From an uncultured Chloroflexia bacterium (lineage in GTDB: Bacteria > Chloroflexota > Limnocylindria > Limnocylindrales > CSP1-4): a stretch of DNA of 64,000 nucleotides. The notes below the pieces were generated by a model. It had not been told where the DNA came from and did no database searches. It saw only the letters and a program-made list of their open reading frames with translations. Shown piece after piece: positions 13,898-58,822 of the stretch. Position numbers and translations under genes: made by a program. The first letter of the stretch is position 1; every line of letters starts with the position of its first letter. The DNA lies in assembly GCA_963707215.1 (NCBI GenBank), contig CAVPPB010000002.1:415491-479490 (forward strand). Reading direction: 5' to 3'.

Positions 13898-16564
13898 GTG
13901 TTCGAGCTGCTTGGTCGCCTCGTCGTTCGCCTCCGCCTCCCCATCGTCGTCGCCTGGCTGGTCGCTGCCGCGATCCTCTTCTTCGCCCCGTCGCTGCAGG
14001 ACGTCGGCACGGCCGACGAGTCCAGCTTCCTGCCGCGCGACGTCGGATCGGTCGCGGCCCGTGAGCTGCTGGCCAGGGGCTTTCCGGAGGACGACGCGGT
14101 CGGCACGGCGACCCTGGTCCTCGTCCGCGAGCCCGGCCCCCTGACCGACGCCGATCGTGCCTACCTCGACGAGCTGGCGGCGTGGCTGACCGACCCCGCT
14201 TCGGACCCGGCCCTGGATGGCGCCGTCAAGATGGTCGTGACGGCCGCGACCCGGCCGGAACGCGCGGCGCTCCTGAGGAGCGAGGACGGCACGACCGAGA
14301 TCGCGACGATCGAGCTGACCGTGCCGGCGTTCCAGGAGCGCGCCAACGAGGTGGTCGCGGCGCTGAGAGCGCGGATCGCCGGGACGGCCCCCGACGGCCT
14401 GCGCGTCCACGTCACCGGTCAGGCCGCCATCGGCGCCGACTACCTCCGGGCCATCGTCGACGGGACCGACCGGACGACGGTCGTGACGATCGCCCTGGTC
14501 ATCGTCATCCTGCTGGCGATCTACCGGGCTCCGCTCGCCGCCCTGGTACCGCTCCTGACGATCGGCGCCGCCTTCCTCGTCGCCCGTGGGCTCCTCGGGT
14601 GGCTGGCCCAGGCCGGCTGGTCGCTGAGCACCCTGATCGACTCCTTCGTCGTCGTCCTCGTCTTCGGCGTCGGAACCGACTACACCATCTTCCTCATCAG
14701 CCGCTACCGCGAGGAGCTGGGCCGGGTCGGCGCAGGTTCGCGGGACGCGGCGGGCCGAGGGATCGCCGCCCGGGTGACCGTGACCCGGATCGGTGCCGTG
14801 ATCACCGCCTCCGCGGCCACCGTGGTCGTCGGTCTCAGCGCCATGGTCATCGCCCGGTTCGGGATGATCCAGACGACCGGCCCCGCACTGGCCATCGCTA
14901 TCGTCGTGGCCCTGGCGGCGGGCCTGACCTTGGCGCCGGCGCTGCTCGTCCTCTTCGGGCCGGCGCTGTTCTGGCCACGTCACCCCAGGCCCGTCGGCCA
15001 GGAGACGGGTGCCGGCGTCTGGGACCGCGTGGCTGCCGGCATCGTCCGTCGGCCGCTGGTCGTCTCCCTGGTCGTCATCGCCGCCATGGCCCTGCCGATC
15101 CTGCTCATCCCCGGCGCCCGGACCGACTTCGACACGCTGGCCGAGCTGCCGGCCGAGTCGGACGCCCGGATGGGCTTCGACGTCGTGGCCGACCACATGG
15201 ACAAGGGGCGGCTCATGCCGATCATCGTCGCCATTCGGACGCCGGCGACCGACCTGACCTCGCCCGACGGCCTGACCGCGATCGCGGCCCTCGGCGATCG
15301 CCTGGCCGCGGTAGACGGCGTGGATTCGGTCCGCAGCCTCGTCAGCCCGACCGGTGAGGGCACCCCGGACGAGATGCGGATCTCGCCGCGCCTGCTCGAG
15401 CTGGCCGATGGGCTCGAGCGCCTGGGGGCTGGTCCAGCGGCGGTCCAGCTCGCCCTGGCCGATCCCGGCGCCGTGGCCGGACTGCGCACGGGACTGGGCT
15501 GGCTGGAGGCCAGGGCCGATGACGTGCCCGCGTTCCGTGCGCTGCCCGGGGCCGGCTCGCTCCGTGCCGACCTCGTGACCCTGACCGCCGCGATGGAGCG
15601 ACTAGCGGCCGCCGACGACCCGGCGACGGCTGCCGCCCTGGCCGGCGAGGCGTCCCAGGCCGCCGGGCGGGCTGCAGCGGCCCTCCGCTCGGCTGGCGTG
15701 GAGCTGGCCGGCGATCCCCGCCGCGACCTCTACCTCCCCGATGTCTCGGGGGGCGACGCCGGGGAAGAGCTCGACCGCCTCGTCGGCGAGTTCGTCGGTC
15801 CGGACGGGTCGGTCGGGCGGATCTACGTCGTCGCCGCAGACGACCCCTACTCGACGGTCGCCTTCGAGACGGTCGACCGGCTGCGCGACGCCGTGAGCGG
15901 GCAGATCGAGGGTATGCCCGAGGAGACGACCGTGCTGGTCGGCGGCTCGACCGCCGAGTTCACCGACATTCGGACGACGATGGACGGCGACTTCCGCTCG
16001 GTGGCCGTGGTCACGGTCATCGGCGTCCTGCTCGTCCTTGTCGTGCTCCTGCGGAGCCTGGTGGCCCCGATCTTCCTGGTCGCCACGGTCCTGCTGTCCT
16101 ACGGCACGACCCTCCACGTCGCTGGCGGCCTGTTCGAGGGCGTGCTGGGTCATGGCGGCATGAACTACTTCCTGCCCCTGCTCGTCTTCGTCCTCCTGGT
16201 CGCCCTCGGCTCGGACTACAACATCTTCGTGGTCAGCCGCATCCGCGAAGAGAGCGCCCACCGGCCCATCCGCGACGGCATCCGGGTGGGTGCGGCCCGG
16301 ACCGGCACGGTCATCACCTCGGCCGGGATCATCCTGGCCGGGACCTTCGCGGCCCTGATGACGGCGCCCCTGGAGCTGCTCTTCCAGGTGGGCGCGGCAG
16401 TCGCCCTCGGCGTCCTGCTCGACACCTTCGTCGTCCGCAGTCTCCTCGTGCCGGCCCTGATCGCGGTCTTCGGGGACCTGTCCTGGTGGCCCTCCGGATG
16501 GCATCGCCGGCGGCTCCCGCGCGGACGTCGTGCCGAGCTCTCGTCGGCGGGCCGGGGCCCCTGA
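13898..16564 (+). CDS. MMPL (RND-superfamily) transporter
   Basis: [18 protein letters not shown] and [33 protein letters not shown]. Confidence 0.92.
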
Positions 16565-16711
16565 CGTCGACCCGATCGCTGCCCGGTCGGCTATCCGACC
16601 GCGCCCCCCGATGGCTCGATGGTGTCCGCCGGCCGGTACCCTCGGGCCACATCGCCGCTCCCCACCGGCGGTGTACGAACCCCCCGAGCATCCCGGCTCG
16701 AAGGAGACACC

Positions 16712-17287
16712 GTGTTCATCCTCTATGCGCTCCTGGTCGGGCTCGTCGTCGGAGCGCTGACGGGGGGCCGACCGGCCCGCCTCGGCTCGCTGGAGATCCG
16801 CTGGCCATGGGTCATCGCCGGCGGACTCGCCGCCCAGCTGATCCTCTTCTCCGAGCCCGTGACCCGGGTCGTGGGCGACGCCGGGCCGCCCCTCTACATC
16901 CTCTCGACGCTGGCGGTCCTTGCTGCCGTCAGCGTCAACCGGCGGATCCCGGGCATCCCCCTGGTGATCGCCGGTGCCGTTTCGAACATGACCGCCATCG
17001 TCGCCAACGGCGGGTACATGCCGACCACGCCTGAGGCCCTGGCGGCCCTCGGCAAGCTGCCTCCGGAGACCTACTCGAACAGCTCGGTGCCGATCTCGCC
17101 GATGCTCTGGCCGCTGACCGACATCTTCGCCATGCCGGCCTGGCTGCCCTTCGCCAACGTCTTCAGCATCGGCGACGTGCTGATCGGGCTCGGCATCGCG
17201 ATCGCCGTGGTCGCCACGATGCGCCGGCCGGACGCCGATCCGGTGCCGCCCGGGGCGGCGGCCCCTCCGGGGGTCCTCGTCCCCTAG
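16712..17287 (+). CDS. DUF5317-like membrane protein with signal peptidase II-like motifs
   Basis: GTG after AAGGAG; GGR..RL..L..RW.W start, N..ANGGYMP, LTDIF, VFSIGD; multiple TM helices. Confidence 0.82.
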   Translation: MFILYALLVGLVVGALTGGRPARLGSLEIRWPWVIAGGLAAQLILFSEPVTRVVGDAGPPLYILSTLAVLAAVSVNRRIPGIPLVIAGAVSNMTAIVANGGYMPTTPEALAALGKLPPETYSNSSVPISPMLWPLTDIFAMPAWLPFANVFSIGDVLIGLGIAIAVVATMRRPDADPVPPGAAAPPGVLVP

Positions 17288-17438
17288 GGGCACCGACCGA
17301 CCCTCCCTCGAGCGGTCGTGGCGCCCCGGTGCACCGGCGAATCGGATCGGGCCCCCCGGTACCCATGAGCCAGTGGCCGCGATCCGGCCGTCACGTAGCG
17401 GTCGCCCCCGAGGGCGACGTCCGCCTTCCGCCGCAAGG

Positions 17439-17526
17439 CCGTCCAGGGCAAACCCGTCGCGAGGCGGGGACGCAAAGCCAGGGATCTTCAAGGACCAACG
17501 AAGACCGCCCGGTTGCCGGACCTACG
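17439..17526 (+). ncRNA. c-di-GMP-I (GEMM-I) riboswitch
   Basis: gtccAGGGCAAACCCGTC-GCGA-GGCGGGGACGCAAAGCC...GGTTGCCggac matches the class-I consensus; GNRA loop; P1 gtcc/ggac; G at the Vc2-G20-equivalent position. Confidence 0.92.
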
Positions 17527-17558
17527 GTGAGGTCTCGGGGAACGAGAGGTACAGACAC

Positions 17559-17648
17559 GTGAAGGCGAACCTGGCGCGCTTCACCACGGCCGTCGCGCTC
17601 CTGGCGTCGATGGCCCTCACCCTTGGCGCGGGGATGCGCTGGTGGTAG
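17559..17648 (+). CDS. Small signal-peptide-like precursor, 29 aa: MKANLARFTTAVALLASMALTLGAGMRWW
   Basis: RBS GAGAGG upstream of GTG, directly after the riboswitch; basic n-region, hydrophobic core, short aromatic tail. Confidence 0.75.
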   Translation: MKANLARFTTAVALLASMALTLGAGMRWW

Positions 17649-17680
17649 CTCCCTAGACGGGAACGACAAGGGAGACGACC

Positions 17681-17755
17681 ATGGACACGCTGAACATCCC
17701 CCTCGAGGATCGGGTGCCGGCCGTTGGTCCGATGGCCGGTCATCGGTGGAGCTGA
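17681..17755 (+). CDS. Second small peptide, 24 aa: MDTLNIPLEDRVPAVGPMAGHRWS
   Basis: Strong RBS AAGGGAG 6 nt before ATG; shares the AG-x-RW-x C-terminus with the preceding peptide. Confidence 0.55.
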   Translation: MDTLNIPLEDRVPAVGPMAGHRWS

Positions 17756-17788
17756 TCGCGACGACCGGTCGCGGCGGCCCGCATCGAG

Positions 17789-17817
17789 CGACCGCCGGGC
17801 GTCATGCCCGGCGGTCG
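17789..17817 (+). terminator. GC hairpin after the peptide ORFs
   Basis: CGACCGCCGGGC-gtcat-GCCCGGCGGTCG, perfect 12-bp stem, no clear U tract. Confidence 0.55.
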
Positions 17818-17946
17818 AGCGATTCAGGGGCTGGGACCGGTCCGTACCTTCGGGCCAGTCTCCCGGGGCTCGCTGCGGGCTAGTCTCGAGCCCTCCGGGG
17901 CGGTCCGGACGACCTGCCCCGAGCCTGCCGTACCAAGGGAGTGCCT

Positions 17947-20511
17947 GTGACCCCGAACCGGGTCATCCGAGCGCGCGCGATCGGGCTGTCCGTCGTCCTG
18001 GCTCGCCGCCCCAGGCTCGAGCCGTCGCAACGCGTCTGGCTGCTGACCATCGGCCTGGCCGTAGCGGCGACGCTCGTGCTCGCGCTGTCCGGCGGCTTCC
18101 TGTCCGGACGGGCGACGTCGGCGATCCCCTGGCCGCTCATCGCCCTGGGGATGTACCTGGCCGAGGTCAAGGTCGTCGTCGTCCACTTCCGTCGCGAGAG
18201 CCACTCCTTCTCGCTGAGCGAGATCCCGGCCGTCATCGGACTCTTCCTCCTGAGCCCCATGGACTACGTGCTGGCGGCGACGATCGGACCGACCCTGGCC
18301 TTCGTCTACCCGGCCCGTCAGCCCTTCATCAAGGCGGCCTTCAACGCCGTCAACTACCTTCTCATCGCCTCGGTCTCGCTGGTCACCTTCCAGATCCTGG
18401 CGCCCGGCGGCGTCGTCGGCCAGCCGGGCGCCCAGGCCTGGCTGGCGGCCTTCGTGGCGATGCTCGTCTCCACGGTCATCAGCAGCCTGACCATCGCCTC
18501 GGTCATCACCCTGTCGGGCGGGGCGCCGCAGTTCCAGAAGATGCCGGAGATGCTCCAGTTCGGCGGTCTCGTGGCGCTCGCCAACACCAGCATCGGTCTC
18601 CTTGCCCTCGCGGTCGTCAGCGTCGACCCGGCCGGCATCTGGCTCCTGATCGTGCCCATCGCCGCGGTCTTCCTTGCCTACCGGGCCTACGTCTCGGAGC
18701 GTGAGAAGAAGGAACGCCTGGAGCTGCTCTACCAGTCGAGCCGCATCCTCCAGCACACGCCCGAGCTCGACGCGGCGCTGATCGCCTTGCTCGACCACGC
18801 CCGCGACATGTTCCGGTCCGAGCGGGTCGACTGCCGTCTCGTGCCGGCGGCCGGGGGGCCCGTCCTGCTGACCCGCTCGCTGCTCGATGTCGAGCCGATC
18901 GTCATGGAGGCCCAGCCCGAGGGTCCGGACGACGAGCTCTCGGCCGTGCTCCAGCAGCGGAGCGACGCCTTCATCTACCGGCCGGAGGCACCGGGCTCCG
19001 GGATCCGCCAGGCGATGGTCGCTCCGCTGGCCGGCGAGGACCGGCCGATCGGCCACCTCATCGTCGCCAACCGGCTGGGGGAGGCCTCCTCCTACGGGGT
19101 CGACGACCTTCGCCTCCTCGAGACGCTCGCCGGGCAGGTGGCCGTCGCCCTCCAGAACGGCCAGCTGGAGCAGTCACTCACGGAGCTGTCCCGGCTGAAG
19201 GACGAGCTCCGTCACCAGGCCTATCACGACTCCCTGACAAGGCTGGGCAACCGGGTCCTCTTCGCCGAGGCCGTCGAACAGAGTCTGGCCGTGGCCTCGG
19301 ACCTGGAGACCGTCGTCCTGTTCCTGGACCTCGACGACTTCAAGATGGTCAACGACACGATGGGTCATGCCGTCGGGGACCGGCTCCTGGGCGTCGTCGC
19401 CGAGCGCATCTCCCGGAGCGTCCGCGAGACCGATGTGGCGGCCCGCCTGGGTGGCGACGAGTTCGCGGTCCTGGTCCACGACCAGCCCGATCTCCGGGTC
19501 GCACTGGCCCTGGCCGGTCGGCTCCGCGAGGAGCTCCATCGTCCCGTCCGCCTGGGTGGCAGCGAGACGGTGGTCGACGTCAGCATCGGGATCGCCGCCG
19601 CCTCGAAGGGCGTCGGCGCCGACGAGCTGCTCCGCAACGCGGACATCGCGATGTACAAGGCCAAGACCGATGGCAAGGGCCGGGTGGCGCTCTTCGACCC
19701 GACGATCCATGCCGCCATCGTCGCCCGCCATGCCCTCGGGACGGACCTGACCCGGGGGCTCCTGCAGAACCAGTTCGAGCTCTACTACCAGCCGATCGTC
19801 GTGCTCGGGACGGGATCGATCTCGGGCTACGAGGCGCTGCTGCGCTGGCATCACCCGCAGCGCGGTCTGATCACCCCCGACGACTTCATCCGGGTGGCCG
19901 AGGAGACGGGCTCCATCGTCGACATCGGGGCCTGGGTCCTCCGGGAGGCCTGTGGGCAGGCCACGGCCTGGTCGGCCCTGCCCGGCATGGACGATCGGCT
20001 CTCGATCAGCGTCAACGTCTCGCCGCGCCAGCTCCAGGACCCGGAGTTCGTGGACCTTGTCCTGGGAGTGCTCCGCGAGACCAGCCTTCCGCCCGAGCGG
20101 CTCGTCCTCGAAGTGACCGAGACGGCGATGTTCCAGGACCCGGTCACCGTCGGCGCGAAGCTCGAGGCGCTCCGCGAGGTGGGTGTGCGGGTCGCCCTGG
20201 ACGACTTCGGCACCGGCTATGCATCGCTCAGCCATCTCCGCCGGTTCCCGGTCGACATCCTCAAGATCGCCCGCGACTTCGTCGTCGACGCCGACGCCGA
20301 AGACGACGCCTGGGCCTTCGCGGCGGCGATCGTCGCACTGGCCCGGACCCTCCAGCTCCAGGTCGTGGCGGAGGGCATCGAGCAGTCGCGCCAGGTCGAG
20401 CGGCTGCGCGGCCTCGGGTGCCAGCTGGGCCAGGGCTACTTCCTCGCCCGCCCCGCTCCGGCGGCGGTCATCGATGCTTCCATCGGCGCCGTCGGCTCGG
20501 CGACGGCCTGA
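17947..20511 (+). CDS. Multipass membrane sensor-GAF-GGDEF-EAL diguanylate cyclase/phosphodiesterase
   Basis: About 6-7 N-terminal TM helices, GAF-like region, DLDDFK..ND..GH..GD, RETD I-site, GGDEF, EALLRW, DDFGTGY, AEGIE; start 17941 or 17947. Confidence 0.93.
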   Translation: MTPNRVIRARAIGLSVVLARRPRLEPSQRVWLLTIGLAVAATLVLALSGGFLSGRATSAIPWPLIALGMYLAEVKVVVVHFRRESHSFSLSEIPAVIGLFLLSPMDYVLAATIGPTLAFVYPARQPFIKAAFNAVNYLLIASVSLVTFQILAPGGVVGQPGAQAWLAAFVAMLVSTVISSLTIASVITLSGGAPQFQKMPEMLQFGGLVALANTSIGLLALAVVSVDPAGIWLLIVPIAAVFLAYRAYVSEREKKERLELLYQSSRILQHTPELDAALIALLDHARDMFRSERVDCRLVPAAGGPVLLTRSLLDVEPIVMEAQPEGPDDELSAVLQQRSDAFIYRPEAPGSGIRQAMVAPLAGEDRPIGHLIVANRLGEASSYGVDDLRLLETLAGQVAVALQNGQLEQSLTELSRLKDELRHQAYHDSLTRLGNRVLFAEAVEQSLAVASDLETVVLFLDLDDFKMVNDTMGHAVGDRLLGVVAERISRSVRETDVAARLGGDEFAVLVHDQPDLRVALALAGRLREELHRPVRLGGSETVVDVSIGIAAASKGVGADELLRNADIAMYKAKTDGKGRVALFDPTIHAAIVARHALGTDLTRGLLQNQFELYYQPIVVLGTGSISGYEALLRWHHPQRGLITPDDFIRVAEETGSIVDIGAWVLREACGQATAWSALPGMDDRLSISVNVSPRQLQDPEFVDLVLGVLRETSLPPERLVLEVTETAMFQDPVTVGAKLEALREVGVRVALDDFGTGYASLSHLRRFPVDILKIARDFVVDADAEDDAWAFAAAIVALARTLQLQVVAEGIEQSRQVERLRGLGCQLGQGYFLARPAPAAVIDASIGAVGSATA

Positions 20512-58203: not shown

Positions 58204-58723
58204 TTAGGGCGCCACCATCAGGTCGAGTGTTGCCAGCAGCTTCTGAATTGCCGCGCTTGTCGTATGCTGGTACAGACGTGCGGTGCAGTTCGCTTCTGCT
58301 CCATCAACCCAGTACGTCGAGTCGAGCGTGAACGAGGGGTCGACAAGTAGCTCCCGAAGGTCCCGATTGACAAGCTGCAGACGCATTCGTCCCTGCCAGC
58401 ACCAGAGGCTGACGAAGGGCCAGTCCGTCGCCGAGGTCGTGACCTCGAACGTGAGGCGCTCGCCGTGGTTGGCGACCTGGTCGGAACCGTCGAGCAGACG
58501 GTGGCGTCAGGTGCCCGTCTGCTTGCCGCTCCCTTGCCGCCCCCTTGCCGCCGTTCCCTCCCTTGCCGGCGAACGCCGTGCCCGCGATGAGGCCGACCGT
58601 CAGCAGGGCGATGATCGTGCCCTCGGCGACGACCTCGAGGGCGTGACGCCGGCGACTCGGTCGAGCCTTCGGCGGTGGCGCGGCATCCTCGCGCTCCCAG
58701 TGCGTGCCATCCCAGTAGGACAT
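58204..58723 (-). CDS. Small secreted/membrane-anchored protein under the c-di-GMP riboswitch (frameshifted)
   Basis: RBS GGGGAGG; MSYWDGTHW...AEGTIIALLTVGLIAGTAFA|GKGGNG; C-terminus FTL.STYW..GA.A.C.A.L...LLAT..V in another frame. Confidence 0.65.
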
Positions 58724-58728
58724 GGCGT

Positions 58729-58822
58729 ACCTCCCCGGCAACCCGGCTGACTGGGAAGGCCATCGGCCGCCAGTCCCGTGGCTTTGCGTCCCCGCCTCGC
58801 GACGGGTTTGCCTTGATCGGAG
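58729..58822 (-). ncRNA. c-di-GMP-I (GEMM-I) riboswitch, translational type
   Basis: Minus strand AAGGCAAACCCGTC-GCGA-GGCGGGGACGCAAAGCCACGGG...GGGTTGCC directly followed by RBS GGGGAGG. Confidence 0.92.

Follow-up and report, generated by a model that had tools for sequence, protein, structure and literature searches.

Within the window, by which we mean the whole 64,000-nucleotide stretch of DNA analysed here, a reading frame of 29 codons (ORF1) lies behind an aptamer of the c-di-GMP-I riboswitch type and is followed on the same strand by a second short frame (ORF2) and a terminator-like hairpin. A gene for a DUF5317 membrane protein precedes this set and a gene for a membrane GAF-GGDEF-EAL protein lies beyond it (Table 1), GGDEF and EAL being the domains of c-di-GMP synthesis and breakdown.

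Table 1. Features of the ORF1 locus, with positions counted along the window
Feature	Position	Strand	Properties and basis
DUF5317 (PF17248) membrane protein gene	16712..17287	+	Pfam E 2.6e-27
c-di-GMP-I type riboswitch aptamer	17438..17521	+	RF03167 and RF01051
Shine-Dalgarno-like GAGAGG	17544..17549	+	9 nt 5' of the ORF1 start; sequence
ORF1	17559..17648	+	29 codons, GTG start, TAG stop; sequence and frame list
26-nt segment invariant as DNA, start-codon hairpin	17559..17584	+	alignment and folding
ORF2	17681..17755	+	24 codons, MDTLNIPLEDRVPAVGPMAGHRWS; GGGAG 6 nt upstream; C-terminal motif as in ORF1
Terminator-like hairpin	17789..17817	+	perfect 12-bp GC stem, 5-nt loop; sequence
Membrane GAF-GGDEF-EAL protein gene	17941..20511	+	Pfam EAL 1.6e-71, GGDEF 3.8e-42, GAF

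ORF1 (GTG AAG GCG ... TGG TGG TAG) encodes M/V-KANLARFTTAVALLASMALTLGAGMRWW-stop, a peptide with a basic N-terminus, ~18 hydrophobic residues and the tail GAGMRWW. The first-pass annotation of this DNA had described a 29-residue peptide at 17559-17648 that has no Cys and turns up in the list of frames only as the tail of a longer ORF, and the sequence and its translation bear out each of these points. The longer ORF is a 91-aa frame (17373..17648) whose front is the riboswitch aptamer read as protein. Standard gene calling misses the cargo of the riboswitch in this way, ORF1 being visible only as the tail of that spurious frame.

A start at 17559 is supported by three features of the sequence. 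The Shine-Dalgarno-like site of the window has a GAGG/GGAG-like counterpart at equal distance 5' of the start in relatives; conservation sets in exactly at the start codon in 34/34 instances; and the open frame around the ORF1 match spans only 29-33 codons in six relatives (G379, G214, G226, G266, G124 and G313), so no earlier start is possible there.

Searches with the ORF1 peptide returned no Pfam family at E<=1 and no NCBIfam family at E<=10, and the ESM Atlas gave only unnamed clusters of 29-34 aa, at 0.89. A library of 1.84 billion representative proteins contains 138 matches at E<=0.001, of which 31 reach E<=1e-10; almost all of them have lengths of 28-126 aa, and many are the tails of over-extended gene calls. 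Three long matches (P0049, P0119 and P0135) were ruled out as relatives, being translated tandem repeats. The public copies that we looked up are annotated as 'hypothetical protein' or unnamed, and the named records that carry ORF1 are Chloroflexota MAGs, including 'Chloroflexi bacterium CSP1-4'.

Coding signal and occurrence of ORF1

For comparison of sequences we gathered 34 distinct instances of ORF1 from 31 loci of related genomes. Judged by its substitution pattern, ORF1 beyond codon 9 is evolving as protein-coding sequence. Within codons 10-28 of the 34 instances, minor alleles number 131, 52 and 218 at the first, second and third codon position, and pN/pS is 0.41 in frame (561 pairs) versus 1.16 in frame +1 (66 pairs; 22/34 sequences are interrupted by a stop there) and 3.58 in frame +2, figures that are descriptive and not independent tests since the sequences are kin. 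The invariant residues A16, A19, A24 and G25 each occur in all four of their synonymous codons, five codons (CGN, AGG, AAG) encode the R or K of position 27, W28 is invariant, and the conserved unit of the tail is A-G-x-[R/K]-W.

These counts bear on the possibility that the frame is untranslated and that the conserved sequence is only RNA, acting as the expression platform of the riboswitch or as a small RNA. Such an explanation draws on the first 26 nt, which are invariant with synonymous sites included and are predicted to fold into a hairpin that shows covariation (see below), but past codon 9 the sequence behaves like protein, with its four synonymous codons at invariant residues and a pN/pS that exceeds 1 only in the other frames, and the Shine-Dalgarno-like site stands at the right distance; we find this explanation scarcely credible. 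The first-pass annotation had made its interpretation depend on conservation of the reading frame and of the C-terminal motif in orthologous loci. Both are conserved there, which argues that the micro-gene is real, and we consider it very probable that ORF1 is a translated gene behind a c-di-GMP-I aptamer. Twenty sequencing runs (six of RNA; best share 0.22) share little with the window and were left unused for expression or habitat.

The end of the peptide is less uniform than its conserved unit. The residue after W28 is a second W in one of the 34 instances, namely the window's own, and W28 is separated from the stop by 0 to 12 codons, depending on the copy. An attenuation leader whose tandem TGG TGG senses charged tRNA-Trp would suit the two Trp codons at the end of the window's ORF1, but this doublet is absent from the other instances, no trp gene was found beside the cassette (the downstream genes vary, and those identified are GGDEF-EAL homologues), and the leader RNA is a c-di-GMP aptamer. 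We see virtually no chance that ORF1 works in this manner.

A profile search found ORF1 in 130/401 genomes of the order and in 30/44 of its genera, a tally that takes in one unpublished genome (G241); among high-quality genomes of the order it is present in 46/163. The window's family accounts for 128 of 358 genomes searched, and the sister family gave one weak match among 42. Across the phylum, ORF1 was found in 10/401 genomes, with 4/23 in the window's family and 3/16 in a second family of the class, which we take to be Limnocylindria (GTDB); two weak matches fell outside the two families. All three loci of the second family have the same order, DUF5317 followed by an RF03167 aptamer and then an ORF1-like peptide, whose tails read AGMRWN, SAGVRWG and GAERKWGPF. 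ORF2 is present in two of the three, with tails AGHRWY and EAGRRWH.

ORF2, the shared tail and the leader RNA

In the window ORF2 begins 32 nt past the ORF1 stop. It follows ORF1 in 31/34 instances, its start lying between -10 and +32 nt relative to the ORF1 stop and most commonly at +2 (15/31). Three forms of ORF2 occur: hydrophobic ones that resemble ORF1, hydrophilic ones, and two of just 11 residues; in the window and in many relatives the peptide is without a hydrophobic segment. All these carriers end in [AS]-G-[H/R/K/Q]-R-W plus 0-1 residues, and the tail common to ORF1 and ORF2 is [AS]-G-x-[R/K]-W. Its codons in ORF2 vary synonymously, with G written in four codons and H as CAT in 14 and CAC in 14 cases, and where the A/S position is Ser it is encoded by TCN as well as by AGC. 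Two public gene calls, P0003 (70 aa) and P0004 (61 aa), read ORF1 and ORF2 as one protein and are either natural fusions or sequencing errors.

Since the same tail is found on hydrophobic, hydrophilic and 11-residue carriers, the pattern of conservation says that the tail is the business end of the peptides. A function of the tail alone would fit the hydrophilic and 11-residue forms of ORF2 better than would the role of a classical membrane subunit. The first-pass annotation had taken ORF1 for a signal peptide with the cargo GMRWW, as in a pheromone precursor. What stands of this is a conserved micro-gene with, as far as layout goes, a basic n-region and a hydrophobic core, followed in most copies by only 3-5 residues. 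The cargo does not stand as described, the conserved unit being A-G-x-[R/K]-W and the second W a peculiarity of the window's copy, nor is the tail merely what a Sec signal peptide carries, since it recurs on ORF2 products that have no hydrophobic segment, down to those of 11 residues.

A strong GC hairpin lies 3' of ORF2 in 30/31 instances (the remaining locus runs into Ns), and the next gene downstream is convergent in 12/34 instances, its orientation being taken from a GC3-based gene call. As the hairpin ends the unit and the next gene is often convergent, the riboswitch would in many genomes control just ORF1 and ORF2. This arrangement weighs against a cis-acting leader or arrest peptide of the TnaC or SecM kind, in which ribosomes would pause on A-G-x-R-W close to the stop codon and so govern the transcription or translation of a gene further downstream. 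Several features would suit such a peptide: it is the final 5-7 residues that are conserved, ORF2 is in some cases no more than 11 codons long and has its stop 0-1 codons past the W in all 31 copies listed, and ORF1 and ORF2 are tightly coupled, as their commonest spacing indicates. However, there is no conserved downstream gene, transcription would meet the terminator-like hairpin 3' of ORF2, the W of ORF1 lies at varying distance from its stop, and the hydrophobic body of ORF1, which would be superfluous in an arrest peptide, is conserved in its amino acids; we judge stalling to be improbable. The leader, Trp-attenuator and RNA-only explanations are thus each contradicted by specific counts.

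The whole unit of riboswitch, ORF1 and ORF2 is tandemly duplicated or triplicated in some genomes, with copies ~490-600 nt apart (L027, L039 and L037; G379:C392 and G124:C16).

Upstream of ORF1, the aptamer scores 65.6 bits against the variant model RF03167 (gathering 59, E 9e-15; Rfam scan of 16500-18500) and 59.6 bits against the canonical RF01051 (gathering 35); where the RF03167 consensus has ACGCGAA the window has ACGCAAA, and identity as a 'GGC' variant is not claimed. Between the end of the aptamer and the ORF1 start codon, on the same strand, lie 37 nt, and in all ORF1 loci compared ORF1 starts +24 to +42 nt past the aptamer. The sequence GCCAGG in P1b was considered as a mark of ORF1-linked aptamers and rejected: seven of nine other aptamers have GCCACGGG, but two have GCCAGGG.

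The first 26 nt of ORF1, comprising codons 1-9, are identical as DNA in 33/34 instances, four-fold sites included. A 9-bp hairpin with the start codon inside it is predicted for them (-10.3 kcal/mol), and nt 12-24 could alternatively form 13 bp with the core of the aptamer, which is itself invariant (-19.7 kcal/mol). GTG starts carry C26 in 33/34. Among six distinct sequences with an ATG start, a compensating U26 (A1-U26) is present in four, one of them from the second family, and absent in two; it restores pairing with A1 at the cost of a Thr-to-Met change. The invariance of the 26 nt as DNA and the covariation in the hairpin argue for selection at the RNA level on the 5' end of ORF1, and the covariation supports the assignment of the predicted start-codon sequestering stem to the expression platform. 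In ensemble folding the mean probability that the start codon is unpaired was 0.18 with the aptamer free to mispair versus 0.14 with the aptamer sequestered, and was higher in the former state in 22/33 sequences, the start codon being mostly paired in both.

Just 5' of the aptamer, at ~17405-17432 (+), lies a short GC hairpin that is found at the same place in all 9 aligned loci with differing stems (e.g. GAAGG/CCTTC, GAAGAC/GTCTTC and GGAAGCG/CGCTTCC); it may terminate the DUF5317 gene or form a stem at the 5' end of the riboswitch transcript.

No more than two c-di-GMP-I aptamers were found in the genome (84.8% complete), and both lie inside the window. The second, at 58733-58821 (-), scores 67.6 bits against RF03167 and precedes an unrelated ORF that starts at 58722 (-) with MSYWDGTHW. 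The same pairing occurs, with proteins of >480 aa, in the relatives L011, L012 and L014. In the window this frame ends after 139 aa and other frames carry on, and the gene may be frameshifted or misassembled.

DUF5317 and the neighbouring genes

The DUF5317 gene, whose start we set at the conserved M/V-FILY, is the conserved neighbour of ORF1: in 26/31 ORF1 loci it is the immediate upstream gene, in the same orientation. Among the five loci without it, contig ends truncate two but not the other three (L032, L044 and L050). As the genes downstream differ between loci, the cassette had been considered to be unlinked to its neighbours, an idea overturned by the conserved upstream DUF5317. A homologue of the GAF-GGDEF-EAL protein is likewise adjacent in 26/31 loci, either upstream of DUF5317 or, as in the window, downstream of the cassette. 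The first 260 residues of that protein in the window (17941-18720, +) make up a region that spans the membrane several times and matches no Pfam family at E<=0.01; this region is another possible target of the micropeptides.

DUF5317 is considerably more widespread than the peptides. It is present in 91/301 Chloroflexota genomes, a tally that takes in the unpublished genome G621, and also in the Thermus and Thermotoga controls. Among 27 DUF5317 loci of Chloroflexota outside the class, a profile search together with a looser pattern found six with a small hydrophobic ORF on the same strand ending in [AS]G[AG]-x(1-4)-W, compared with 0/27 on the opposite strand and 0.05 in shuffles; the stricter pattern G-x-[RK]-W occurred in none of the 27. 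Because the family is so much more widespread, and 21/27 outside loci are without such a small ORF, DUF5317 does not need the peptide.

In complex prediction DUF5317 and ORF1, both of genome G021 and each with its own alignment, scored 0.41, the best of 3 controls reaching 0.01. The mark used is reached by 58/80 solved complexes and by 2/110 mismatched pairs; 7 of the 80 solved complexes and both of the passing mismatches score <=0.60, and passes in this range are more often wrong than right. At least 86% of contacts recur between runs, and the partner pLDDT is at least 61. Modelling thus lends weak support to a DUF5317-ORF1 complex.

The same genome as that of the window's cassette holds further copies of both families. 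A 684-aa protein joins DUF5317 (26-172) to an MFS_3/MFS_1 transporter (290-677; G000:C2 ~16290-18343, minus strand; L086:493-2544), and ~29 DUF5317 matches, among the matches listed, sit in frames of 600-753 aa, all from the two families of the class. A riboswitch-less hydrophobic paralogue of ORF1 with the tail EAGRRWF (G000:C2:342649-342747, minus strand) lies directly after a second DUF5317 gene, and another riboswitch-less paralogue (G000:C2:331477-331575, plus strand) ends in QAGMRWH.

The AF2 model of DUF5317 has a pLDDT of 81 and no fold match in the PDB at E<2 (best Foldseek E 2.0), a profile search of the PDB gave no match at E<=10, and the Atlas search yielded no usable match. An enzyme like signal peptidase II that acts at a lipobox-like L-x-[AS]-G | x was rejected: the lead was Pfam Peptidase_A8 at E 0.26, LspA was absent from the Foldseek PDB matches and the PDB profile search was empty. 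Invariant polar residues of the family include N76, N92, N99, N123, D137, N149 and D155. Our literature search found no paper on DUF5317, and nothing on c-di-GMP in Limnocylindria or on small proteins behind c-di-GMP riboswitches in Chloroflexota.

The most substantial alternative that these genes bring up is that the peptides are processed or exported signals. ORF1 and ORF2 would then be precursors from which the C-terminal x-[R/K]-W is freed or exported, handled by DUF5317 alone or in its MFS_3-fused form, with c-di-GMP as the gate. A short conserved C-terminal motif on otherwise variable carriers, down to the 11-residue ORF2, would suit such precursors, as would the small residues (G/A/S) that occupy -1 and -3 relative to the variable residue and are compatible with a cleavage site. 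The many invariant polar residues of DUF5317, its fusion to an MFS_3 exporter in the same genome and the adjacency of peptide gene and DUF5317 in most loci point the same way. Yet the searches above revealed no fold of a protease or transferase in DUF5317, Cys is absent from all 31 aligned ORF1 copies as from the window's and with it any lipobox Cys, and the hydrophilic forms of ORF2 have no export signal. The neighbours scanned in the window (DUF5317, the GAF-GGDEF-EAL protein and an MMPL-type transporter, the last read by eye) include no gene of receptor type or known for processing, and in particular no processing enzyme or receptor gene of the Agr, ComX or SHP/XIP type. The residues after the W are variable as well, up to 12 in some ORF1 copies, so that a free C-terminal W is not required. 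On balance we hold processed signals to be unlikely. In a bolder version, to which we give still less credence, DUF5317 would be a membrane machine of new fold that cleaves or exports at [AS]-G | x-[R/K]-W, and the cassette a c-di-GMP-gated peptide signal. If that were true, the production of a tiny peptide cue, extracellular or periplasmic, would be timed directly by an intracellular second messenger through a riboswitch, and DUF5317 would gain its first function.

Proposed working of the cassette and comparison with known systems

With moderate confidence in the statement as a whole, we favour a c-di-GMP-gated cassette of two micropeptides that works with DUF5317 in a local c-di-GMP module. 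It would consist, in this order, of the c-di-GMP-I riboswitch, ORF1 as first cistron with its 29-aa single-pass hydrophobic peptide, ORF2 and the terminator, and the recurrence of the synteny in the second family of the class speaks for it. Binding of c-di-GMP to the aptamer would set the amount of both peptides, and control would be exerted via the start-codon hairpin, the 3' arm of which may alternatively pair with the aptamer core. The simplest model, and a guess, is an OFF switch, in which the ligand would close the aptamer, the hairpin would form and translation would drop. ORF1 would insert in the membrane and act via its tail together with DUF5317, be it as small subunit, regulator or substrate, and a micropeptide layer would in this way have been added to the local module. 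We regard ORF1 as a probable, hitherto unrecognised output of c-di-GMP signalling and not as an established pheromone.

The direct outputs of c-di-GMP riboswitches are understood in very few cases, and in uncultured soil and freshwater Chloroflexota this part would be played by a pair of micropeptides. The proposed cassette has features that can be tested, namely a short tail on two otherwise different peptides, an expression platform that extends into the coding sequence and DUF5317 as a fixed genetic partner, and it offers a concrete handle on an orphan family of membrane proteins.

Other aptamers of this class are a first point of comparison. The Vibrio cholerae riboswitches Vc2 and Vc1 (RF01051), associated with the genes tfoY and gbpA, resemble the aptamer of the window in class, by covariance-model score, and in their position in a 5' leader. 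They differ in that the cargo here is only two micropeptides and that the platform would lie partly in nt 1-26 of ORF1.

MgrB and SafA are single-pass peptides of ~30-65 aa encoded beside signalling genes, and they act on a larger membrane protein. ORF1 is similarly a small single-pass peptide near signalling genes that is proposed to bind a larger membrane protein, but a relationship in sequence is not expected, and its proposed partner is DUF5317 and not a histidine kinase, as suggested by synteny and a weak complex prediction.

The streptococcal SHP and ComS/XIP pheromones, the latter with a WW motif, come from precursors of ~20-30 aa in which a basic N-terminus and a hydrophobic body precede the active part, an aromatic C-terminus. 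ORF1 resembles them in length, basic N-terminus, hydrophobic body and aromatic C-terminus. In contrast to these systems, the scanned neighbourhood has no Rgg/ComR-type receptor gene and no Eep or PptAB gene, the motif of ORF1 and ORF2 is also found on hydrophilic carriers, and control is by a riboswitch.

The closest precedent, alike in its way of working, is the CD1980.2 family of C. difficile, which consists of 58-aa membrane-associated proteins that are encoded behind class I c-di-GMP riboswitches and promote sporulation (PMC13724677). It is the one published case that we found of tiny unannotated proteins as outputs of c-di-GMP riboswitches, and CD1980.2 is reported to have no homologues outside C. 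difficile (PMC13724677). Both systems have a class I c-di-GMP riboswitch with a tiny, formerly unannotated hydrophobic protein as its cargo, and in both the genes are multicopy or duplicated. We do not file ORF1 as a member: CD1980.2 is a 58-aa protein of Firmicutes, whereas ORF1 is a 29-aa peptide of uncultured Chloroflexota. Further differences are that here two coupled cistrons share a C-terminal motif and are linked to DUF5317, and that the platform is predicted to act on translation and not by termination; sporulation is irrelevant here. The principle is that of CD1980.2, but the family, phylum, architecture and partner differ.
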